Shown here piece after piece: positions 10,914 through 24,832 of a stretch of 24,832 bases of DNA. The position numbers were made by a program, and so were the translations under genes. Origin of the DNA: a virus. Lineage: Duplodnaviria > Heunggongvirae > Uroviricota > Caudoviricetes. The DNA is taken from the IMG/VR virus record IMGVR_UViG_2737471828_000007; one strand, written 5' to 3'. The notes beneath the pieces are model-generated. The model searched no databases. It saw nothing but the letters and a program-made list of their open reading frames with translations, and was not told the DNA's origin. Position 1 is the stretch's first letter. The number at the start of each line of letters is the position of its first letter.

Positions 10914-12665
10914 ATGATTCAGGACGCTTTTGTGCGCCAGCGTGCGCGACAACTTTACTGGCAGGGTTATCCGCCCGCTGAAATATCACGTCTGATGGGA
11001 ATAAACCCGAACACGATTTATGCGTGGAAAAAACGCGACCAGTGGGATGAAACGCCACCCGTGCAGCGTGTCACGCAGTCCATCGATGCGCGCCTCATCC
11101 AGCTTACTGAAAAACAGAATAAAACAGGTGGCGACTTCAAAGAAATAGACCTGCTGACCCGGCAGCTTAAAAAACTGCATGATGGCCAGCCGGATGCGAC
11201 GGCCACAGGAAAGAAAGGCCGGGCGAAAAAACTCAAAAATCATTTCACGCCGGAACAGATTGCCGCACTGCGGGAAAAAATCATCAGCAGGCTGGAGTGG
11301 CATCAGCGGGGCTGGTTTGACTCCCTGACCCTTTGCAGGGGAGCCGGGATACGTAACAGGATGATCCTGAAATCCCGACAGATTGGGGCGACCTGGTATT
11401 TTGCACAGGAAGCACTGCTGATGGCGCTGCGTGACGATGTGGCACAACCTTACCAGCGTAACCAGATTTTTTTGTCTGCGTCGCGTCGTCAGGCGTTCCA
11501 GTTTAAAAGCATTATTCAGAAGGCCGCGGCTGAAGTTGATGTGGAGCTGAAAGGGGGCGATAAAATCATCCTCTCCAACGGCGCAGAACTGCATTTTCTC
11601 GGTACTTCTGCTGCGACGGCACAGTCCTACACAGGCAATTTTTATTTTGATGAATTTTTCTGGGTCAGTCGCTTTGCTGAACTGCGCAAGGTGGCTGGCG
11701 CTATGGCAACCCTCAGCGGACTGCGGCGCACCTACTTCTCCACGCCATCCACCGAAACGCACGAGGCATACGCCTACTGGAACGGCGACCGCTGGAACGA
11801 GAAAAAGGCCTCGCATAAACGCCAGCGTTTTTCTGTGGACTGGAAAACGCTGCATAACGGGCTTATCTGCCCTGACCGGACGTGGCGGCAGATTGTCACG
11901 CTGGAAGATGTGGTTAATCACGGCTGGAAACACACCGATATCGACGAAATTCGTGATGAAAACACCGAAGACGAGTTCCTCAATCTCTATATGTGTGAGT
12001 TTGTCCGCGAAGGGGAATCGGCATTTAACCTGAATATCCTGATTGGCTGCGGTGTTGACGGATACGACGACTGGAAAGACTGGAAACCTTTTGCTCCCCG
12101 CCCGATGGGGAATCGTCCGGTATGGATTGGGTATGACGCAAACGGCAGCAGTGGTAACGGCGACAGCGGCGCTGTGTCTGTGGTGGTTCCTCCGGCTGTT
12201 CCTGGTGGCCGTTTTCGAACGGTGGAGACGCGACGCGTTCAGGGGCTGGAGTTTGAAGAACAGGCCAGAGTCATTGAAGAGTTCACGTGTCGCTACAACG
12301 TGGAACACATCGGCATTGATGTGACGGGCGGGAACGGGGAGGCTGTTTATCAGATAGTGAAACGGTTTTTCCCTGCTGCTATTCCGTACACCTTCACGCT
12401 GTCATCAAAACGGTCGCTGGTACTGAAAATGCTGCAAATAATGCGTGCCGGGCGGTGGGAATACGATCGCGCCGAACGCGAGCTGGTCGCGGCCTTTAAC
12501 GCCGTGCGTAAGGTGAAAACACCGGGCGGCTTTATCACTTACGAAACGGACCGCGCGAGGGGGATCAGCCACGGCGACCTTGCGTGGGCAACCATGCTTG
12601 CTGTCATTAACGAACCGATTGGCGGCGAAGGAGAAAACGAGCGTTTCACGGTTATGGAGTTCTGA
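10914..12665 (+). CDS. P: Terminase ATPase (large) subunit P (P2 gpP-like)
   Basis: 583 aa; ATG at 10914 with GGGGGAG RBS; P2 P-like sequence; followed by Q with ATGA-type overlap. Confidence 0.9.
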   Translation: MIQDAFVRQRARQLYWQGYPPAEISRLMGINPNTIYAWKKRDQWDETPPVQRVTQSIDARLIQLTEKQNKTGGDFKEIDLLTRQLKKLHDGQPDATATGKKGRAKKLKNHFTPEQIAALREKIISRLEWHQRGWFDSLTLCRGAGIRNRMILKSRQIGATWYFAQEALLMALRDDVAQPYQRNQIFLSASRRQAFQFKSIIQKAAAEVDVELKGGDKIILSNGAELHFLGTSAATAQSYTGNFYFDEFFWVSRFAELRKVAGAMATLSGLRRTYFSTPSTETHEAYAYWNGDRWNEKKASHKRQRFSVDWKTLHNGLICPDRTWRQIVTLEDVVNHGWKHTDIDEIRDENTEDEFLNLYMCEFVREGESAFNLNILIGCGVDGYDDWKDWKPFAPRPMGNRPVWIGYDANGSSGNGDSGAVSVVVPPAVPGGRFRTVETRRVQGLEFEEQARVIEEFTCRYNVEHIGIDVTGGNGEAVYQIVKRFFPAAIPYTFTLSSKRSLVLKMLQIMRAGRWEYDRAERELVAAFNAVRKVKTPGGFITYETDRARGISHGDLAWATMLAVINEPIGGEGENERFTVMEF

Positions 12666-13711
12666 TGAGCAGAAAAAATAAAAAAGTGCGCATGAGTTCA
12701 CGCATTGATCTCGCTGATGCGCTCAGGAAAGAATCATCGCTCAGTGCATTCACATTTGATGGTCCTTATCGCCTGACCGGGCATGACCTGCTGGACAATA
12801 TGTACTGTGCTGATAACGGGCGGTGGTATGAAACCCCGGTGGACTGGTACGGTCTGGCAAGAGCTGCCCGGCAAACGTCCTGGCATCAGTCTGCGCTTTA
12901 CTTTAAGCGCAATGTATTACTCGGTTGCTACATCCCGCACCCGCTGCTTTCCCGGCAGGATTTCTCGGCGCTGGCGCTGGACTGGTTTGTGTTCGGTAAC
13001 GCATTCCTTGAGCTTCGAAGCAATATGCTCGGCGAACCGCTTAAATTACGGCACGCACTGGCGAAATACATGCGACGCGGAAGCGATCTTGAATCATGGT
13101 GGTATGTGCAGGATGGCAAGGACGCGTTTCAGTTTCGCCCAGGCAAAGTGTGTCACCTGATGAATCCTGACATTAACCAGGAAATCTACGGCATGCCGGA
13201 ATATCTCGGCGCATTACTCTCGGCCAGCCTGTCTCATTCGGCGGACATGTTCAGAAAACTGTATTACGACAACGGATCCCACGCCGGGTGCATCATCTAC
13301 ATCGGTGCAGCGCAGGTAAACCGCGAAAGCATGGACTCCCTGAAAGAAACGCTACAGGGTGCGCGTGGTGGTGGTGCGTTTAAAAACGTGCTCATTCATG
13401 CGCCCAACGGGGGCAAAGAGGGGGTGCAAATTTTGCCGTTCCAGCAGATCACCGCAAAGGATGAGTTTATGAATGTTAAGGCGGCATCCCGTGATGATGT
13501 GCTGGCTGCGCACCGCGTTCCGCCGCAACTGATGGGGGCGATGCCGGGCGAAAAAAGTGCGTTTGGCGATGTGGAGAAGGCAGCGCGGGTTTACGCAATT
13601 AACGAGCTGATGCCCGTCATGGAGGCTATGAAGCACATCAATGACTGGCTTGGCGAAGAGGTGATCCGTTTTAACTCTTATGCTCTTCTTGATGAAAAAA
13701 CAGCCCCGTGA
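12665..13711 (+). CDS. Q: Portal (capsid-vertex) protein Q (P2 gpQ-like)
   Basis: 348 aa ORF immediately after P; P2 Q-like sequence. Confidence 0.9.
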   Translation: MSRKNKKVRMSSRIDLADALRKESSLSAFTFDGPYRLTGHDLLDNMYCADNGRWYETPVDWYGLARAARQTSWHQSALYFKRNVLLGCYIPHPLLSRQDFSALALDWFVFGNAFLELRSNMLGEPLKLRHALAKYMRRGSDLESWWYVQDGKDAFQFRPGKVCHLMNPDINQEIYGMPEYLGALLSASLSHSADMFRKLYYDNGSHAGCIIYIGAAQVNRESMDSLKETLQGARGGGAFKNVLIHAPNGGKEGVQILPFQQITAKDEFMNVKAASRDDVLAAHRVPPQLMGAMPGEKSAFGDVEKAARVYAINELMPVMEAMKHINDWLGEEVIRFNSYALLDEKTAP

Positions 13712-13727
13712 TGGGGCTGTCCTTTTT
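13693..13727. terminator. Bidirectional intrinsic terminator shared by Q (+) and the convergent gene at 13726..14250 (-)
   Basis: Perfect 7-bp stem CAGCCCC/GGGGCTG with 5-nt loop, A6 run upstream and T5 run downstream; the Q stop codon sits in the loop. Confidence 0.7.
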
Positions 13728-14250
13728 ACCAGAGTTGAACCATTTTCTGGGTGCCGTCAGGCTTGAGATTATCAATTTCAGAGAGAACGTAATATTGAAT
13801 GGCTTCACAAACGGTGGTGTAAGGTGAATTACCTTCTTTAAGTGGCACGATATTATTATTAACGCGAACCTGTATTTCATCGTTATACATTGCGATCGAA
13901 ACAGGAGTGTGCACGAACGCGACTTCGCCAGGTGTGTCGTCAACCACCGTTTCAATACTAAAAGTCAGTTTTCGCTCATCATTGCTGCCCCGTGCTTTGG
14001 GGGTAGCGGCAGGGATCTGGGATAAAGGCATTCTGCGAAATCCTTCGGCTGCTTCCAGTCCGCATGAAACGTAATGCTGGCGATTACCGTCGCTATCTGT
14101 CCAGGTCTGTGATGGCAGCTCCAGCGAGATTTCATAATCATCAACAATGCCCTGGGCAAGGCGTACAAGCGGGGTCAGATCTTCATTGCGGCGAAAGCTC
14201 TCCTTTACCTGCTCCCGTTTTTCTCTTAACTGCTTGTAATTAATGACCAT
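13726..14250 (-). CDS. Hypothetical protein (174 aa), standalone cargo gene next to the expected cos end
   Basis: Track ORF 13726..14289; start placed at internal ATG (MVINYKQLREK...) preceded by GGAGG; convergent with Q; I recognise no family; AT-richer than the flanking structural genes by eye. Confidence 0.65.
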   Translation of the reverse strand: MVINYKQLREKREQVKESFRRNEDLTPLVRLAQGIVDDYEISLELPSQTWTDSDGNRQHYVSCGLEAAEGFRRMPLSQIPAATPKARGSNDERKLTFSIETVVDDTPGEVAFVHTPVSIAMYNDEIQVRVNNNIVPLKEGNSPYTTVCEAIQYYVLSEIDNLKPDGTQKMVQLW

Positions 14251-14289
14251 AAGACAGCCTCCATTGATTTCTTTGCTCGTATTTTGCAC

Positions 14290-14836
14290 TTATGAAGTAT
14301 GATCGGCAAGGTGCCGTATCGCTGACGCGCTTCGCTTGTCTGCTGCTTCGCCGGGGCATAAAAAATTTATGCCCCGACTCTCCAGCTCCTGTATCAATCA
14401 GATAATTTCACGACGCCTTCCAGCTTATTGTCATCATCGACGGTCAGGCTCTTACGCAATCCCGCCGTGCTGACTGCATGTTCTCGTCGCCTCAGTGCGA
14501 TTTTGACGGCCTTATCAGTCACCCCATCAAATCAAAAGTCCTCACGTATTTTTCACGCTCAGCGTGAGAAAGACAGCCATTCTGTTGTGTCGCTGCGACA
14601 TCGTTCAGGGAATGCTGTTTACCCCCTGAAACGCGGGCTGTTCCCCCGTCACCTGCGCGCAGAAAAAGCGCGTTTTTTTGTGCACGCACGGATCCTTGAC
14701 GGATCCAGCCGCCATGCGGGCCGGAAGGGTAAAAAGTCGTTCAAAAAAATTGTGCAAATTTGTGCACTTTTGTGCAAACAAAAAGCGCCCCTGAGGCGCT
14801 TTAGTGTTTTATAGGTTGTGTATATTGGCTGGGTCC
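14290..14836. promoter_or_regulatory. About 550 bp non-coding region with several palindromes and repeats; probable promoter/operator region of the 13726..14250 gene and candidate location of cos
   Basis: No credible ORF (the only track ORF is Arg-rich and low-complexity); 10-bp palindrome GGGGCATAAA/TTTATGCCCC near 14353..14375; TCACGCT-c-AGCGTGA near 14555; TGTCGC-t-GCGACA near 14587; TTGTGCA repeated three times at 10-11 bp spacing near 14749..14778. Confidence 0.5.
14771..14802 (-). terminator. Intrinsic terminator at the end of the parM-parR-orf-orf operon
   Basis: Stem AAAGCGCC/GGCGCTTT with 5-nt loop followed on the minus strand by a T-rich run; about 35 nt downstream of the stop at 14837. 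Confidence 0.65.
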
Positions 14837-15100
14837 TTATCCTGCTGTGCTTTCAACTGATGAGGGGAACAAAATCTTTTCATCAAACCCTGCATTCATA
14901 TCATGGACAGCAACACACCAATCCATTGACGAACGATTATCAAGAGCCTCCATGATTTCATCCATGCGGCGTAGGTCATACAGGTAAATGTTTTTATCGC
15001 CAATGGTGTAAAAACCAATTTTTTTCGGTGATGGACAGCGATCAAGAACGTCCTGTAATTCGCTCAACCATGCTTGTTCTTTTTTTGTCAAAGTTGCCAT
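14837..15100 (-). CDS. Hypothetical protein (87 aa), last gene of the par operon
   Basis: Track ORF 14837..15121 (TTG first); ATG at 15100..15098 with AAGGAGAG RBS, 1 nt after the stop of the upstream gene; no family recognised. Confidence 0.6.
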   Translation of the reverse strand: MATLTKKEQAWLSELQDVLDRCPSPKKIGFYTIGDKNIYLYDLRRMDEIMEALDNRSSMDWCVAVHDMNAGFDEKILFPSSVESTAG

Positions 15101-15101
15101 A

Positions 15102-15533
15102 TCACTCTCCTTTGATGCCAATGTCTACAGCTTGGCAAGCCTCTTTGGTCACCCAGTCAATAGCGTCTTTCCATACTCCAGTTTCGACTGGCGGATTCTC
15201 ACGCTTTACCTGTTCATAGAAACGCACCGCTCTAACCAGTCCATCTGGTACTGCTGGCGCTGGCGGCTCTCGATACATAGGGATAACACGTCGCGGGTCC
15301 GCGTATTTATCTGGCGGACACTGAAATATCTCACCGAAACCATACTGCTTGACATCACGCAGTTCCTCATCATCAGTCCATGCAACAGGTTTCGCTTCCA
15401 GCGATGTGAGTGCGATTTTCAGTGCGATTAACATATTGTGATCGTTTTCATCAAGGCCAAACGGGATGTCTTCACGACACGATTCAAGGTCTGCAATTTT
15501 GCGTTGTAACCATTTTTTGGGGATAGTTGCCAT
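15102..15533 (-). CDS. Hypothetical acidic protein (143 aa), third gene of the par operon
   Basis: ATG at 15533 with GGAGAGGAG RBS, 19 nt after the parR stop; no family recognised. Confidence 0.65.
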   Translation of the reverse strand: MATIPKKWLQRKIADLESCREDIPFGLDENDHNMLIALKIALTSLEAKPVAWTDDEELRDVKQYGFGEIFQCPPDKYADPRRVIPMYREPPAPAVPDGLVRAVRFYEQVKRENPPVETGVWKDAIDWVTKEACQAVDIGIKGE

Positions 15534-15552: not shown

Positions 15553-15867
15553 TCACTCTGGGAAAAATGACTGAATGTTCTTTCTTATCTCGCTAGTGCT
15601 GTGATTGCTTCCGGTGGCAGGTGCGCTGGCATATTTACTCTGAATATTATTCTTGGCTGGCGCAGCTCCTTCTTCCGGCCATTCGGCCAACCAATAGGCA
15701 AATGCAGGATCGCGTTTTATGAGTGCCAGCCCGGCCAGAAAGGCCGCGCGTTGCGCGCGGCTGCGTTCAGAGGCTGGCAGGCTGTCGAGGTAATTACACG
15801 CCTCCCGTTCACTATTGACGGCGACTGGCTTCAGATAGAAACTTATCCGTCTGGTTGGTGTCGTCAT
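15553..15867 (-). CDS. parR: ParR/StbB-like centromere-binding protein (type II partition adaptor)
   Basis: Track ORF 15553..16002; start placed at internal ATG (MTTPTRRISFYLKPVAV...) with AAGGAG RBS, 4 nt after the parM stop; ISFYLKP...LDSLPASERSRAQRAAFLAGLAL resembles plasmid R1 ParR (ribbon-helix-helix N-terminus). Confidence 0.75.
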   Translation of the reverse strand: MTTPTRRISFYLKPVAVNSEREACNYLDSLPASERSRAQRAAFLAGLALIKRDPAFAYWLAEWPEEGAAPAKNNIQSKYASAPATGSNHSTSEIRKNIQSFFPE

Positions 15868-15871
15868 TGGT

Positions 15872-16831
15872 TTACTCCTTGTCCATTGCGTACAGCCCAT
15901 TAACCAGAGCAAACTGTGGCACCCCGTCCGCGATGAAAGTCGCATTAACTCCGCAGGCTTCGCGGATAGCGGGTGCCACAATCTCCGCCCCGCCACCGAC
16001 AACCATCACCCGCCCGTAACCCGAAAAACCCGCCAGCGCGCGGATCACGCGTTGTTTCAGTGTTTCTTCCTTTTCACGAATAACCGCCATCAGGCTGGCG
16101 TAATGCGCGTCATTGTGGATGTGCTGGCGCAGCCAGGCTTCATCATGGCGATGTTCGATAATGGTATTGGCGATGTGGTGACTGGTGCGCATACCGTTAG
16201 TGGCCATCACCGACAGTACGGCATCGGCCATCAGAGAAACGCCTACGTGTGGATCGCAAAACATCTGGCTGATACCTGCCAGTTGCCCCTGAACCTTTGC
16301 CACATCCAGCGTGGTTCCGCCCAAATCCACAATCAGCAGGGATTCAAACGGACTCATGTCAGCCAGTGCCTTAAAGCCAGCCGGAATGGATTCAGGCATA
16401 ACCCGTACGTTACGGATAGTGAATGCTTCGCCGTTCTGGTACTCCACCGGGCGCATAACGTTCGCTTTTTTGCGGTTGATGTTGGTCATGTCCGGCTGTG
16501 CGTTTGTGTCGAAATACTCGCTCAGTGGCAGGGTGACAACCACATCCACCTCCTGTGGCGTGATGCCTGATTTGACCAGCGCGTGATGAATGGCAATGAC
16601 ATTCACATCGCTGTACTGGTATTGCGTGTCGGTCGTCTGGACAAAGCGATCGCTGACCGGATCAAAACCATAGCGCACGCCATCAAGCATATAGTTCGCG
16701 GGCTGCGTGCCACAGAACGGCGCAGACCATTCCGACTTGAAGCTGTTCGGGCTGATGGCGTTGCGGCGTTCGCCGTTCTCAGTCCATGCCAGCTTGATGT
16801 TGGTGGAGCCGTCGTCAATACAAATTTTCAT
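15872..16831 (-). CDS. parM: ParM/StbA-like actin-fold segregation ATPase (type II partition)
   Basis: 319 aa; hallmark ParM motifs IDDGSTNIK, ISPNSF, QYSDVNV..HHAL, VMPESIPAG, DLGGTTLD, GGGAE, LVNG; same length as R1 ParM. Confidence 0.85.
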   Translation of the reverse strand: MKICIDDGSTNIKLAWTENGERRNAISPNSFKSEWSAPFCGTQPANYMLDGVRYGFDPVSDRFVQTTDTQYQYSDVNVIAIHHALVKSGITPQEVDVVVTLPLSEYFDTNAQPDMTNINRKKANVMRPVEYQNGEAFTIRNVRVMPESIPAGFKALADMSPFESLLIVDLGGTTLDVAKVQGQLAGISQMFCDPHVGVSLMADAVLSVMATNGMRTSHHIANTIIEHRHDEAWLRQHIHNDAHYASLMAVIREKEETLKQRVIRALAGFSGYGRVMVVGGGAEIVAPAIREACGVNATFIADGVPQFALVNGLYAMDKE

Positions 16832-16860
16832 GTCGTTTTTCCTTATGTTGATTAATTAAT

Positions 16861-16975
16861 CGTTTACGGGATTCTGAAATCCCGTTTTTGCCTGTTTTAT
16901 GCGCGCTTCATATATCGCGGCGCGTTTTTTGCTCATTTACGGGATTTGTGAATCCCGTTTTTGTCTGTTTTTTGT
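16861..16975. repeat. parC-like repeat region upstream of parM: two direct repeats of about 38 bp, each with a perfect 8-bp inverted repeat, flanking a GC-rich palindrome
   Basis: TTTACGGGATTCTGAAATCCCGTTTTTGCCTGTTTT (about 16863..16900) and TTTACGGGATTTGTGAATCCCGTTTTTGTCTGTTTT (about 16936..16973), about 73 bp apart; each contains ACGGGATT-N4-AATCCCGT; between them CGCGC...GCGCG followed by T6. Overlaps the 3' end of the A ORF. Confidence 0.6.
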
Positions 16976-19733
16976 TTCCACTGGTCAGGCCACCCCGCAG
17001 CAGGTCTGCTTTGCGGCGGGCGCGTTCAGTGGTTTCACTGATTCTCTGTGCGTGCTCTGCGTCGCGGATGGCGCGCAGCATGTCAGAAAGCACGGTAACG
17101 GGTGTTTTCATGGTGTTCTGGTCTTGCTGAAGTGTGGATGCCAGGCGTGCGGCGGCTTCAGGGTCTGATACCCCAAGCTGTTCCAGATAGCTGGCGACCG
17201 GGTTATGGCGGATCTCCGTGCTGCTTACGCCGTGATTACGGCTCAGGCGTTGCCAGAGCTGCGTGATTCGGCTGTCCGGGCGGGTATCCGGTTTGCGTAC
17301 AATTTCAAATCCCTGCGGTGCAATGATGCTGCCGTCAACGTACAGACTGCCGCCCCGTAACAGGTGCTGCATCTGCTGTTCACCGATATGCAGGCCGAGA
17401 GATTCAGCAGACTCCCGCCATTCTTTAGCGAGTAATTCGTAGTTATCAGGCAAAGGCCGCTGCTGTTTGCGGCTCTGTGTCCAGCTCTGCATTTCATCAC
17501 TGCTGTTTTTTGCCTGTTTGTCACGAAGCGAACGCATCAGCGCCCGGCGTTCGTGCCGTTTCAGTGAGCGCATCCATTCGTTCACTTCAACGCCGTCAGG
17601 GAGCTGCGGCCACGGTGCTGGCCGTTCTTTCGGCTGTTCTGTCCCGTTGTTGTCCGTTTCCTGTACACGGGGACAGTTATTGCCACGAGTCCAAGGGGCG
17701 GCAGGGCCGCCCTGAAGGTCAAAACCATTTTCGCGGGCGCTGTCTTCCGCTTCCGGTTTACGTCTTACCAGCTTCCAGTTATCCGGATGCGTGCACACAC
17801 GGGAGGATTCCCCGATGAATGGCGACCAGATCCCGTAAATCTGTACACTCTGTTCGCCGTAATCGTTCAGCTCATCTGCGAGGTCGTAGGCTGTGCGAAT
17901 CAGGTAGTCCTTGCGCGGAACAAGTACGCCACCCTGTTTTTCAATGTAGGTGGCAAAACATCCGGCATCAGCGGCAGCGAGTACCGCATCCATTGCGTCA
18001 TCCTTCAGCCGTTGCGGGCCTTCCGGGTTGCGTGCCATCTGGCTGGCAAGGCGGCGCAGTTCACGCCACACCTGACGGGAGGGGATGCCAAAGAACTGGA
18101 ACTGGCGGACCCGATGAAGGCGCGCCCAGCCGATGGCGCGCTCCACGCTCTCGGCCATTGATTTTCCGGTTTCGTGGTCAACGCGTGGTTTGCCCGTTTT
18201 CGGGTCGATTCCATCCACGGCGCGGCTGTCCAGGTTTTTTCCGATGTAGGTGGCGATGTAGCTGGTTGGCGTGCCTTTGGAGCCGTCGACGTACTCCACC
18301 TTAAAGCGCGGAGTAATATCATTGCCCAGCTCGTGGCGGTCTTCCTGAATGGCAATATCGCGGGTGATGGCCACGATGCTGTCGATTTCTTCCGGATGAG
18401 CAAAGACCATCATATGCCAGTGCACGGTGCCGTCATGGTGAGGCTCCACCGTGCGGATGCCATACCAGCGCAGGCCGTCGCGGTTCAGTTTTTTGCGGAC
18501 CGCCGCAAAAAACGTGTTAACCAGGTAATCGCTGGAGTCGCGCATGGTGGCCCCGTTCCATTTGGGATTCGGATGACCGTTCTCTGTTGTGGCGTGGTAT
18601 TTTGACGGGCAGGTGACAGTCAGAAACACCGCTTTGTCGCCACGGGCTTCGGCCAGAAGTTCCAGTCCCTTCATGGTGGCCATCATTTCTGCCTTACGGT
18701 GAACCGGGTTACTTACTCCCGCGTAATACACTGTCTCGAGATCAATCGTGAAACCGTCTTCGTTTTCCAGTTCGAAGCTCTTCAGGAAGTCGCGGGTTTT
18801 CTCGCGCTGTGCGCGAAACTCGCTTAACGCGTCCTGGCTCAGATAGGGTGATGTTTTTCTGGAAACCAGACAGGCGGCGCGGAGTTGTTCTTCTCTCCAC
18901 TCACAACGTAACAGCCACAGTTTGCGTTTCCACCAGTCCGCACAGGTCAGGCGAAGGATTGCGCCCGGCAGCAGTTCCGTATCCGGTTCGCTCTTGTTCA
19001 GGGCTTCGTAATGTGGCGGCATGATGTGCAGGCGTAATGCGATACGAGCCAGCATCCGGTAAGCCTTCAACATTACATCCATGGTCAGCTCGCCATCTCT
19101 GGCACCAAAGCCATCGCAGAGTGTTTCGAAGGTGCTGCTGAACATCGCCGCGGTCATGGTGGCCAGCGTCTGTATCTGGTGCTTGTTGAGCTGCGGCAGG
19201 TAAAGCAAATCGTCCAGGCGTTCGCGCCCGGCAAGGGAGCGATAACCCGGTGTCAGCCAGCGTCCGTCAGTGCGATCCAGACGTTCGAATATTTTGCGCA
19301 GGGTTCCGCGTGCATAGCGTTCCGCCTGCCAGCTCTTTTTGCCTTTCTGGCGATCGGCTTCCTGTTTTTTGCGCAGGAAAGAGAGGTGGTGGCTCAGTGG
19401 TTCACGCAGATAAACAGGTAGTGCCTTTAGTGTGGCAAAGGCACGGGCTACCGGGTCTTGTTCTGTTGCCCGGCGCTTACTGATGATGCTCTGTGCCAGC
19501 TTTTCACGCTGTCCGGCTTCCTCAAGGGATGCCATGAGTTTTTTACCCATGGCGGATTGTGCGAAAAAGGCTTCTTCCTTCGCTCCCTGTTCTTCCTGTG
19601 CCCTTTTGTCCGCCTCAAGGTAGTAACGGATGGCGCGTTGCAGGTCGGTTTCAGTTTCCTGCCTGCGCTCCGTAAATCTGGCCGGATCAATGGCTGGCCG
19701 TGGTTCATTCCAGCTCCATGCAAACTCACTCAT
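16908..19733 (-). CDS. A: Replication initiation endonuclease A (rolling-circle, P2 gpA-like)
   Basis: Track ORF 16908..19760 (GTG first); ATG at 19733 abuts the stop of the upstream gene; conserved HHDGTVHWHMMVF metal-binding region and YIATYIGKN active-site tyrosine region typical of P2 A. Confidence 0.85.
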   Translation of the reverse strand: MSEFAWSWNEPRPAIDPARFTERRQETETDLQRAIRYYLEADKRAQEEQGAKEEAFFAQSAMGKKLMASLEEAGQREKLAQSIISKRRATEQDPVARAFATLKALPVYLREPLSHHLSFLRKKQEADRQKGKKSWQAERYARGTLRKIFERLDRTDGRWLTPGYRSLAGRERLDDLLYLPQLNKHQIQTLATMTAAMFSSTFETLCDGFGARDGELTMDVMLKAYRMLARIALRLHIMPPHYEALNKSEPDTELLPGAILRLTCADWWKRKLWLLRCEWREEQLRAACLVSRKTSPYLSQDALSEFRAQREKTRDFLKSFELENEDGFTIDLETVYYAGVSNPVHRKAEMMATMKGLELLAEARGDKAVFLTVTCPSKYHATTENGHPNPKWNGATMRDSSDYLVNTFFAAVRKKLNRDGLRWYGIRTVEPHHDGTVHWHMMVFAHPEEIDSIVAITRDIAIQEDRHELGNDITPRFKVEYVDGSKGTPTSYIATYIGKNLDSRAVDGIDPKTGKPRVDHETGKSMAESVERAIGWARLHRVRQFQFFGIPSRQVWRELRRLASQMARNPEGPQRLKDDAMDAVLAAADAGCFATYIEKQGGVLVPRKDYLIRTAYDLADELNDYGEQSVQIYGIWSPFIGESSRVCTHPDNWKLVRRKPEAEDSARENGFDLQGGPAAPWTRGNNCPRVQETDNNGTEQPKERPAPWPQLPDGVEVNEWMRSLKRHERRALMRSLRDKQAKNSSDEMQSWTQSRKQQRPLPDNYELLAKEWRESAESLGLHIGEQQMQHLLRGGSLYVDGSIIAPQGFEIVRKPDTRPDSRITQLWQRLSRNHGVSSTEIRHNPVASYLEQLGVSDPEAAARLASTLQQDQNTMKTPVTVLSDMLRAIRDAEHAQRISETTERARRKADLLRGGLTSGNKKQTKTGFTNPVNEQKTRRDI

Positions 19734-20191: not shown

Positions 20192-20422
20192 TTAATGGAG
20201 TTTGTTTTGCTGCTGAAAGAGCTGCTGAAGCTCGCGCAGATCATCCGCCAGATAGCTGAAAACAGCGGATGAATAGAGGTTTGAAAGTTCGCAGCTACGC
20301 TCATGCAGCATATTGATGTGCATGATTTTAGCGACGCGGAATGCGCGGGAAAGTCTGCGGTTGATTTCAGTCTGGATGTGACGACGCTCCGCGATAGCGC
20401 GGTGCTGTTTGCGGTTTGCCAT
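20192..20422 (-). CDS. Hypothetical small basic protein (76 aa)
   Basis: ATG at 20422; N-terminus Arg/Lys-rich (MANRKQHRAIAERRH...); lies downstream of a predicted terminator and structured non-coding island. Confidence 0.5.
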   Translation of the reverse strand: MANRKQHRAIAERRHIQTEINRRLSRAFRVAKIMHINMLHERSCELSNLYSSAVFSYLADDLRELQQLFQQQNKLH

Positions 20423-20439: not shown

Positions 20440-20660
20440 TTTGTGAGTTTTTGGATACTCACCAACCAGAGTTGAGAATCTCGGGGTGGCGAGACGTACG
20501 GGGTTCTCAACACCGGCAAACGAAGAAACCGGCCCGACCGAAGTCGGCCCCGTACGCCCCACCATAATTCGTGTGCGAAAAAGACGTGGCAATACAGTAC
20601 GCACAAAAAAACCGCTGGCGCGGTTGTGCGCTTCGTTTGTCAGCAGGTTGAGAATCCCGG
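20440..20660 (-). ncRNA. Candidate structured non-coding element inside the early operon (nested inverted repeats, repeated GTTGAGAATC motif, stable tetraloop hairpin)
   Basis: No credible ORF; GTTGAGAATC at about 20471 and 20648 (direct) and inverted at about 20503; 9-bp inverted repeat CGTACGGGG/CCCCGTACG (about 20495 and 20548) enclosing hairpin GGCCCGAC-CGAA-GTCGGCCC, which reads as a UUCG-loop hairpin on the minus (transcribed) strand. Strand and nature (RNA versus DNA site) not established. Confidence 0.35.
20603..20625 (-). terminator. Intrinsic terminator within the early region (minus strand)
   Basis: Stem AACCGC/GCGGTT with 4-nt loop, followed on the minus strand by T7-8. Confidence 0.6.
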
Positions 20661-20747
20661 CACCCGTTTTATGAGGTGCAGCAGAAATGTAACCTGACTG
20701 ATTGCGGCATGGCAAGCGGTTTTTTTGTGTGTGCATGCTCTGATTTC

Positions 20748-23776: not shown

Positions 23777-23842
23777 CCCTTTATTATTCTTACGTTTTAC
23801 AAACTGGAAATGTCTTTCCTCGTTTCACCGGAGGGCTTGCCA

Positions 23843-24832
23843 ATGGCAATTAAAGCGCTCGATGGTGGACGGTATAAAGTGGATGTTAGACCGCGTGGCC
23901 GAAGTGGACGTCGGATTCAGCGGATTTTTAAGAAAAAGGCAGATGCAGTGGCCTTTGAGCGTTATGTTCTCAGCCACATGCACGATAAGGAATGGCTTGA
24001 AAAGCCAACAGAGCAACGTCATCTCTCAGATCTGCTTCCGTTATGGTGGGAATTGGGTGGACGCAATAAGCCATATGCTAACGGCGTTCTAACCAGGTTG
24101 AAAAAAATCATCAAAGAAATGAATGATCCAAGGGTTAGCCAGATTAATGCTCGTTTCATGGCCGCTTATCGAAGCTCCCGTTTATCCTTGGGAGTAAAAG
24201 AGTCTACTGTTCGGCGTGATGAGTCGGATCTCGGAGGAATGTTTACACTCCTGGCAAATGCCGGGGAATTTCACGGAGAAAATCCGCTCCGCGCCCTCCC
24301 CTCTTTGAAACGAAAATCACCCGAAATGACGTATCTCACCACGGAAGAAATCGCCAAATTACTGGATGCAGTAAGCGGTGATGCCCGGCGGATTACGCTA
24401 CTTTGTCTCAGTACTGGTGCGAGATGGGGAGAAGCGAAAAATCTGCGCGCGGAACACATCATCAATAACCGCGTGACGTTTAACAAAACTAAAAACGGAA
24501 AAGTTCGAATTATTCCTGTCTCTGATGAAGTTGTTAGTGAGATCAAAACAAAGAAATCCGGCCTTTTGTTTGACGTCAATTATGAGGAATATCGCAAGGT
24601 GCTTCGCAGTGTTAAGCCTGACCTACCGAAAGGGCAGGCTGTACATGTTCTACGCCATACCTTTGCAGCTCACTTTATGATTAATGGAGGAAATATACTT
24701 ACGCTCCAGCGAATTATGGGGCACGCCACGATCCAGCAAACTATGACCTATGCGCACCTCGCTCCTGATTTCCTCCAGGATGCAATTTCACTTAATCCGT
24801 TAAAAGGAGGTATCCACATTTCATCCACATAA
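23843..24832 (+). CDS. int: Tyrosine integrase (P2 Int-like)
   Basis: Track ORF 23810..24832; start at ATG 23843 (MAIKALDGGRYKVDVRPRGR...) with GGAGGG RBS; conserved LSTGARWGEA, HVLRHTFA, GHATIQQTMTYAH catalytic motifs; TAA stop is the last three bases of the window. Confidence 0.9.
   Translation: MAIKALDGGRYKVDVRPRGRSGRRIQRIFKKKADAVAFERYVLSHMHDKEWLEKPTEQRHLSDLLPLWWELGGRNKPYANGVLTRLKKIIKEMNDPRVSQINARFMAAYRSSRLSLGVKESTVRRDESDLGGMFTLLANAGEFHGENPLRALPSLKRKSPEMTYLTTEEIAKLLDAVSGDARRITLLCLSTGARWGEAKNLRAEHIINNRVTFNKTKNGKVRIIPVSDEVVSEIKTKKSGLLFDVNYEEYRKVLRSVKPDLPKGQAVHVLRHTFAAHFMINGGNILTLQRIMGHATIQQTMTYAHLAPDFLQDAISLNPLKGGIHISST

Follow-up and report, generated by a model that had tools for sequence, protein, structure and literature searches.

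A ParM/ParR/parC-type module beside the replication gene of P88-like P2-family phages: conservation, phage-specific ancestry and a predicted role in segregating the circular phage genome

The 24,832-nucleotide viral DNA of IMG/VR record IMGVR_UViG_2737471828_000007 (the window, which here means the whole 24.8-kb stretch) holds a P2-family temperate phage lying in reverse orientation. Downstream of its replication gene A sits a cassette made of an actin-fold ATPase gene (parM) and an adaptor gene (parR), preceded by a repeat region that resembles a centromere (parC). Our analysis suggested, with moderate confidence, that this cassette is a complete and functional type II (ParM/ParR/parC) module, which would segregate the circular phage genome replicated by the gene A product (gpA) in a transient episomal phase. 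The cassette itself is not new: databases annotate it, it is widespread, and published work has put forward the same episomal hypothesis. The strong purifying selection on the module, its phage-specific clade and linkage to gene A, and a two-dyad candidate centromere are the additions of the present analysis.

By nucleotide and protein similarity and by gene order, the window is a P88-like phage of the genus Xuanwuvirus (Peduoviridae). The cassette region is 94-99% identical at the nucleotide level to phage P88, Xuanwuvirus P884B11, Citrobacter phage PhiSM and others, and the annotated gene order of P88 agrees with that of the window. On the minus strand, gene A is followed directly by parM and then by parR. 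The interval downstream of A in P2 contains orf91, tin and old (P2 annotation). The cassette lies between gene A and the portal gene and therefore fills the A-to-cos/portal interval, the place of orf91/tin/old in P2. An earlier sequence-only reading had put the cassette in the tin/old position of a phage that also carries an integrase, and both statements were borne out, by the P2 annotation and by the integrase gene (Table 1).

The identity of the two proteins was examined by profile searches and by comparison with solved structures. ParM matched the Pfam domains StbA_N (1.1e-81) and ParM C-terminal domain (3.7e-68), and it aligned with the solved R1 ParM (PDB 1mwk) over residues 2-316 with an E value of 2.4e-91 and 46% identity. 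When it was aligned with four ParMs from plasmids or phage-plasmids, the nucleotide-binding motifs DDGSTNIK, DxGGTTLD and GGGA did not vary. ParR matched Plasmid_stab_B (Table 1), and its N-terminus aligned over residues 6-61 with the ribbon-helix-helix domain of pB171 ParR/StbB (PDB 2jd3; E value 0.005). The ParM/StbA-like ATPase and the ParR/StbB-like adaptor proposed from the sequence were thus confirmed. The parR ATG lies 4 nt past the parM stop codon, with its Shine-Dalgarno sequence within the end of parM. A 149-aa open reading frame (ORF) starting at TTG and reaching 16002 overlaps parM and was rejected as parR; the gene was counted from the ATG.

Selection on the module was analysed in 86 sequences: 80 fetched IMG/VR relatives, the window and five further loci. 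parM was full-length at 319 aa in all 86, with a ratio of nonsynonymous to synonymous substitution rates (dN/dS) of 0.054 at a mean dS of 0.085. parM is under strong purifying selection. ParR was more varied, with 50 distinct sequences among the 86 relatives and at least two allele classes. The strand RRISFYLKP was present in nearly all of them (one has RRISLYLKP), and the helices after the strand were conserved. The linker (residues about 65-92) was hypervariable, whereas the C-terminal tail NI(Q/R)xxFPE was conserved and aligned with the C-terminal KKNAMKLIN of IncF plasmid ParR and with other plasmid ParRs. The C-terminal peptide of R1 ParR is the part that docks on ParM, and the phage ParR tail is likewise predicted to bind ParM. 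A retained N-terminus and tail with a variable linker is the pattern expected from selection for DNA binding plus ParM binding. Nucleotide homology among the relatives (loci L010-L089) repeatedly ends within parR, near codons 18 and 49, or immediately past the gene, and the left edge of the exchangeable hotspot seems to lie inside this gene.

The earlier prediction of a repeat region upstream of parM also held. Two direct repeats of 42 nt each were found at 16860-16901 and 16933-16974; they are 83% identical and lie 73 bp apart. Each repeat contains an 8-bp-arm palindrome, ACGGGATT-N4-AATCCCGT, which occurs twice in the window, and two or more matches were obtained in 0 of 100 shuffles. The proximal dyad core (GGG-N10-CCC) spans -52 to -37 relative to the parM ATG. 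The distal dyad is located inside the final codons of gene A (stop codon 16908-16910), at the end of a C-terminal part of about 140 aa (16908-17340) that is lineage-specific and had no Pfam match.

The same arrangement was found in distant relatives. Exactly two GGG-N10-CCC elements lie upstream of parM in the window (-125/-52) and in the P2-like prophages of Plesiomonas (-131/-59) and Hafnia (-128/-55), and the background density of this element is 0.16-0.41 per kb. The spacing is 72-73 bp in all three lineages, roughly seven helical turns. The ParMs of Plesiomonas and Hafnia are only 61-62% identical to that of the window, and the dyads are nonetheless conserved; the ParRs of the three lineages have the common strand TRR(I/V)SFYL. 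These comparisons suggested that the dyad pair is likely parC, that is, a pair of predicted ParR-binding sites.

An RNA hairpin or an intrinsic terminator was also considered as a reading of the repeats and was judged unlikely. The dyad region folds better than shuffles (z = -3.4), but the stems and T-runs are absent in Plesiomonas and Hafnia, where nothing but the GGG-N10-CCC cores and the distance between them has been kept. Across 55 E. coli-lineage variants, the substitutions in the stems gave no consistent strand signal: the variants of hairpin 2 are G-U compatible on the sense strand, and those of hairpin 1 are compatible on the opposite strand. Because hairpin potential was not conserved and no strand signal was seen, the dyads were taken as protein-binding sites rather than RNA structures.

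An array of A-tract motifs surrounds the dyads (Table 1). The motifs are spaced by 7, 10, 33, 30, 10, 22 and 27 nt, and some of these distances come close to multiples of 10.5. Within the 140 nt that precede parM there are 7 motifs, against a window-wide mean of 0.45 per 140-nt bin, and only 2 of 2470 bins reach 7. The A-tract core CAAAAAC resembles the CCCAAAAAC iterons upstream of IncF plasmid parM. A third half-site copy, AAACGGGAT, was seen at 15459-15467 (+) in the opposite orientation, inside the 143-aa ORF downstream of parR, and may be due to chance.

The transcription of the cassette was then assessed from its signals. No minus-strand terminator-like site was found between A and parM, and no promoter upstream of parM reached 9 of 12 consensus matches; a single 8/12 match ends in the coding region. 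The lack of both signals fits co-expression of parMR with the replication gene, and in the simplest reading parMR would be the distal part of the early (replication) transcription unit. In P2 the early unit is transcribed from Pe and kept silent in lysogens (P2 annotation). Expression together with gpA suggests an action on the circular genome during rolling-circle copying. The 3' end of the unit is probably the intrinsic-terminator-like hairpin that follows the 143-aa and 94-aa ORFs, which lie close behind parR (Table 1). The downstream part differs between relatives, with the variation beginning inside or after parR. Three ORFs separate parR from the portal gene; Pfam, NCBIfam and PADLOC gave no match for them, and they are candidate hotspot cargo.

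The cassette itself behaved differently from such cargo. It was present in 14 of 14 P88-like records and at all 86 loci. In the phage collection, the same 14 records have gpA at 84% identity or more and ParM at 94% or more, and the remaining P2-like gpA proteins are at most 43% identical, in alignments that stop at residue ~806. This fixed co-occurrence with one gpA lineage indicates that the module is not variable hotspot cargo.

Whether the module came from a plasmid was addressed by tblastn against PLSDB and by a search of a large protein database. PLSDB had no plasmid ParM with an identity from 60% to 95%. Genuine plasmid homologues (IncI/K, IncF, IncFIC) reached at most 52%, and the six records above 95% were copies of the phage, located in very large replicons or, in one case, forming a whole-phage circle of 34,461 bp. 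The nearest ParMs outside E. coli, at 54-62% identity, came from Plesiomonas, Hafnia, Serratia and Enterobacter. The four whose gene context was read all belong to P2-like prophages with the order gpA, ParM, Plasmid_stab_B, cargo and portal/terminase. In a midpoint-rooted neighbour-joining tree built without bootstrap, these four and the window ParM formed one clade apart from the ParMs of IncF, IncI, IncFIC and D6. Two chromosomal ParMs at 49-50% identity fell outside the clade, one in an integrative conjugative element and one in an integrated Rep3/ParAB plasmid. A recent plasmid origin was therefore rejected, as no plasmid ParM lies in the 60-95% range and the nearest relatives adjoin gpA in P2-like prophages of four genera; the recent plasmid-phage recombination that had been offered as one explanation of the cassette is not supported either. 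These comparisons indicate that the module is an old, vertically inherited component of one branch of P2-like phages.

Exact ParM peptides, scanned against one genome per species, matched three loci only, in E. albertii, Salmonella and a 'Vagococcus' contig. Exact peptides were too stringent for judging breadth, and the large protein database was used instead. The 'Vagococcus' locus lies on a 226-kb contig of 'Vagococcus sp. WN89Y' (NZ_JBQPOM010000071.1), and its ParM is 98% identical to the E. coli phage protein. Vagococcus is a Firmicute, and the contig is most likely enterobacterial contamination or an assembly mislabelling.

The survey of P2-like prophages that the sequence-only reading had called for found the cassette in abundance. 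Besides the P88-like records, it was detected in 1303 of 5426 complete E. coli genomes, with 1441 of 1443 copies on chromosomes and 2 on plasmids. The premise that actin-type partition is foreign to integrating P2-family phages is thus contradicted. RefSeq already annotates 'plasmid segregation protein ParM' and 'partition protein' in P88-like phages. Pfeifer et al. (2021, PMC7969092) placed P88 among putative phage-plasmids and suggested 'episomal and integrative states', and the hotspot tables of Rousset et al. (2022, PMC9122126) list StbA with Plasmid_stab_B hundreds of times; these authors noted the cassette and suggested an episomal state. Magaziner et al. (2019, PMC6456863) listed the gene of PhiSM as fitness cargo. 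PhiSM, whose ParM is 99% identical, lysogenises K-12 through integration at pdxB (PMC6456863). A functional study of the module was not found in the literature.

One prophage of E. coli O157:H7 bears on the role of the module. In strain NE92 (NZ_CP038316.1, 2137572-2166891), a defective P2-like prophage is flanked by yecA and a tRNA cluster. IS3/IS1203 insertions have cost it the head and packaging genes, one IS1203 lies ~80 bp beyond parR, and int, gpA, parM and parR are intact. We take this prophage to be Sp13. Sp13 is reported to excise, circularise and replicate, with a ~30-fold rise after mitomycin C and increased early-region transcripts (PMC2669165).

Based on these results, a mechanism can be proposed. 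ParR dimers would bind the two dyads upstream of parM through their ribbon-helix-helix N-termini, and the conserved ParR tail would catch ATP-ParM filaments at their ends. A filament growing between two ParR-parC complexes would then drive sister phage genomes apart. The substrate would be covalently closed circular phage DNA, present after infection or excision and multiplied by gpA rolling-circle replication. A dividing cell would in this way give copies to both daughters before integration or packaging, and the resting state would stay the integrated prophage. What we infer in this mechanism is that ParR binds the dyads, when the genes are expressed and what benefit results.

Several points weigh against segregation of the excised circle. 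The candidate centromere has two dyads, compared with about ten 11-bp iterons within 250-350 bp upstream of parM in the related plasmid-type loci (IncF, D6, IncFIC, IncI). The E. coli-lineage dyads also score as plus-strand terminator-like hairpins, with 8-bp palindromes followed by T-runs. ParMRC requires at least two copies and continued cell division. The expression timing rests on absent consensus signals, which are weak evidence, and a weak ParR-controlled promoter may overlap the proximal site, because the TTAATCAA...AAGGA leader is conserved.

The module was compared with characterised systems. R1/NR1 ParMRC (StbA/StbB/parC) has its centromere, parM and parR in the order of the phage's candidate centromere, parM and parR, and its resemblance extends to all ParM nucleotide-binding motifs, the ribbon-helix-helix N-terminus and IncF-like C-terminal tail of ParR, and A-rich CAAAAAC cores upstream. 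R1/NR1, however, is plasmid-borne, and in its centromere a strong promoter is flanked on each side by a block of about five 11-bp iterons. The phage module resides in an integrating phage and has two dyads as its candidate centromere, one of them inside the upstream gene, with no consensus-like promoter. Its ParR is shorter (104 aa, with the hypervariable linker), and its ParM belongs to a separate phage-specific clade.

The closest functional precedent is srpMRC of the SXT/R391 elements (Carraro et al. 2015, PMC4489591). This actin-type partition system likewise resides in a normally integrated element whose transient circle is copied by an HUH-type nickase in rolling-circle mode. With srpMRC the excised element is lost less often, and the adaptor recognises direct and inverted repeats located in the motor gene's 5' region (PMC4489591). 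The host of srpMRC is an integrative conjugative element, and its function was shown experimentally, whereas that of the phage module is inferred. The relationship of SrpM and SrpR to R1 ParM and ParR is distant, and that of the phage proteins is close.

Two other phages with a partition function are plasmid prophages. The P1-like phage-plasmid D6 with its StbA/StbB is the sole other phage with a detectable homologue in a 50,697-record phage collection, with 47% ParM identity and the same parM-parR order. D6, however, is a true plasmid prophage with about ten TCTCA-type iterons upstream, and its ParM groups with plasmid ParMs. Burkholderia phage KS14 combines P2-type morphogenesis genes with a partition function, as the present phage does. 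KS14 persists as a plasmid and relies on a RepB initiator and a ParA (type I) ATPase (PMC3091744), whereas the present phage has gpA and an integrase and is found integrated.

A prophage-encoded actin-like system with another purpose is known from CGP3, an integrated prophage of Corynebacterium that also specifies AlpC, an actin-like protein, with an adaptor, AlpA (Donovan et al. 2015, PMC4446434). AlpA binds upstream of its own operon, and both genes are switched on soon after excision, their products acting on the circular phage DNA. They differ from the present module in actin-like family, adaptor and host phylum, and the effect demonstrated for them is on replication efficiency rather than segregation. 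By this model, ParM filaments might position or spread replicating circles for replication or packaging in the lytic cycle, and inheritance by daughter cells would be irrelevant. The apparent co-transcription of parMR with the replication gene agrees with such a role, as does the need for AlpAC in efficient phage DNA replication (PMC4446434), and conservation in the active phages P88 and PhiSM is compatible with a function in productive growth. However, the module is intact in the O157 prophage that lacks head and packaging genes, and its retention in this remnant makes a packaging or burst-size benefit hard to invoke. Moreover, R1-type ParMRC is a bipolar pusher for low-copy DNA pairs, not for copy pools. 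We consider an organising role in the lytic cycle unlikely.

Long-term maintenance as a low-copy plasmid prophage besides integration, with ParMRC making that state heritable, was suggested by Pfeifer et al. (2021) and Rousset et al. (2022), and it resembles the plasmid-like maintenance stage of the sequence-only reading. Whole-phage circular records do occur in finished E. coli assemblies (NZ_CP148288.1, CP025923.1 and CP025874.1); NZ_CP148288.1, of 34,461 bp, is labelled a plasmid and has int and the attP context. KS14 gives a P2-like example of a plasmid prophage, though with RepB and ParA. The circles may be either induction products or true episomes, and circles in assemblies can be mere products of induction. 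Among the ~8 stand-alone 30-45 kb enterobacterial P2-like circles of PLSDB, the parMR type was not enriched (1-2, against a baseline of ~25%). The almost exclusively chromosomal copies, the integrase and the integration of PhiSM also speak against it. The sole replication function seen is the rolling-circle gpA of the lytic programme, with no theta-type replicon, and Pfam and NCBIfam scans of gene A, parM, parR and the three ORFs downstream gave no match to a plasmid-type Rep. Finished assemblies, with only a few such circles, lend the earlier idea of a plasmid-like stage little support. This form of the explanation is more doubtful still than a role in the lytic cycle.

It is very unlikely that the cassette serves competition or lysogenic conversion, with prophage ParR, ParM or parC disturbing, by partition incompatibility, plasmids, phage-plasmids or superinfecting relatives that have a related centromere. 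Two points speak for it: the cassette borders the P2 hotspot where old, tin and many defence systems are found, so that it would agree with the defence role of the A-to-cos hotspot, and ParR has allele classes with a hypervariable linker. Yet the module is invariant within the gpA lineage, unlike hotspot cargo. P2 old and tin are convergent and expressed from their own promoter; parMR, by contrast, runs in the direction of A and lacks a consensus-like promoter. The DNA-reading strand of ParR and the dyads differ from those of plasmid parC, which makes cross-binding unlikely. A defence system was likewise unsupported, since PADLOC found no match for the five locus proteins (ParM, ParR and the three downstream ORFs). 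The last alternative, a decaying functionless relic of an old plasmid-phage recombination, has in its favour only the oddity of a partition system in an integrating phage and is effectively refuted by the selection data, by an arrangement kept across genera at 54-62% ParM identity, and by the conserved ATP-binding motifs and predicted ParM-binding tail.

The features of the region are collected in Table 1.

Table 1. Coordinates of the partition cassette and neighbouring features in the window
Feature	Position	Strand	Basis or remark
parM, 319 aa, actin-fold ATPase, filament-forming motor of type II partition	15872-16831	-	Pfam and PDB matches
parR (stbB), 104-aa adaptor	15553-15867	-	Pfam Plasmid_stab_B (PF10784) 3.8e-25
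Proximal candidate site (parC site 2)	16866-16885		Core GGG-N10-CCC 16868-16883, in the 76-bp A-parM intergenic region
Distal candidate site (parC site 1)	16939-16958		Core GGG-N10-CCC 16941-16956, 73 bp from site 2
A-tract array, 8 motifs (A3-6, then C, then G or A)	16835-16977	-	Around and between both dyads
Leader TTAATCAA	16848-16855	-	Within the A-tract array; conserved in Plesiomonas and Hafnia
parM Shine-Dalgarno AAGGA	16840-16844	-	Within the A-tract array
Gene A (P2-type rolling-circle replication endonuclease), 950 aa	16908-19760	-	Pfam Phage_GPA 5.8e-130
Candidate cargo ORF, 143 aa	15102-15533	-	PHROG 660, unknown function
Candidate cargo ORF, 94 aa	14837-15121	-	PHROG 1714, unknown function
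ORF, 187 aa	Between parR and portal gene, within 13726-15533	-	PHROG 5091, unknown function
Intrinsic-terminator-like hairpin	14802-14782	-	After the 143-aa and 94-aa ORFs; probable 3' end of the unit with parMR
Terminator-like hairpins	14655-14673; 14752-14767; 14782-14802	+; both; both	Within 14290-14836
Portal and terminase	10914-13711	+	Head and tail genes further left
Integrase	23810-24832	+	Begins at 23810

Some further observations concern the surroundings of the cassette. The P2 cos 19-mer had no match anywhere in the window at up to 3 mismatches, so the cos site of the phage was not located. A region of ~550 bp (14290-14836) is without a convincing ORF and contains several terminator-like hairpins. 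In the early region, Rfam identified a C4 antisense RNA (79 bits; 20482-20569, -) adjoining an isrK Hfq-binding small RNA (62 bits; 20605-20679, -), just upstream of a small ORF (20192-20422). The gene annotated 'derepression protein' in P88 and the O157 prophage appears to correspond to this ORF, and the pair of RNAs suggests an RNA-controlled antirepressor switch. Such a switch may be the reason why P88 and Sp13 respond to mitomycin C and P2 does not.

A wider proposal, which we offer tentatively as possible, is that P2-family phages own an ancient, phage-specific branch of R1-type ParMRC, whose minimal centromere of two dyads lies where the replication gene ends, and that this branch makes the circular genome, copied by rolling-circle replication, heritable in dividing cells. 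If this were true, 'integrative' phages, and even defective remnants like that of O157, would have a regulated, partition-competent episomal phase, and the line between prophage, phage-plasmid and integrative conjugative element would be blurred. It would also help to account for how about a quarter of E. coli P2-like prophages persist and move.

As a discovery the finding is modest, the genes being annotated and the idea in print. About a quarter of complete E. coli genomes, O157:H7 included, nevertheless carry the cassette in a P2-like prophage. As a type II centromere the two-dyad site would be very compact, and ParR-parC assembly could be dissected with its help. If the module partitions the excised or unintegrated circle, it would be the phage counterpart of SXT/R391 srpMRC, and models of lysogeny establishment, prophage stability and the phage-plasmid boundary would change.

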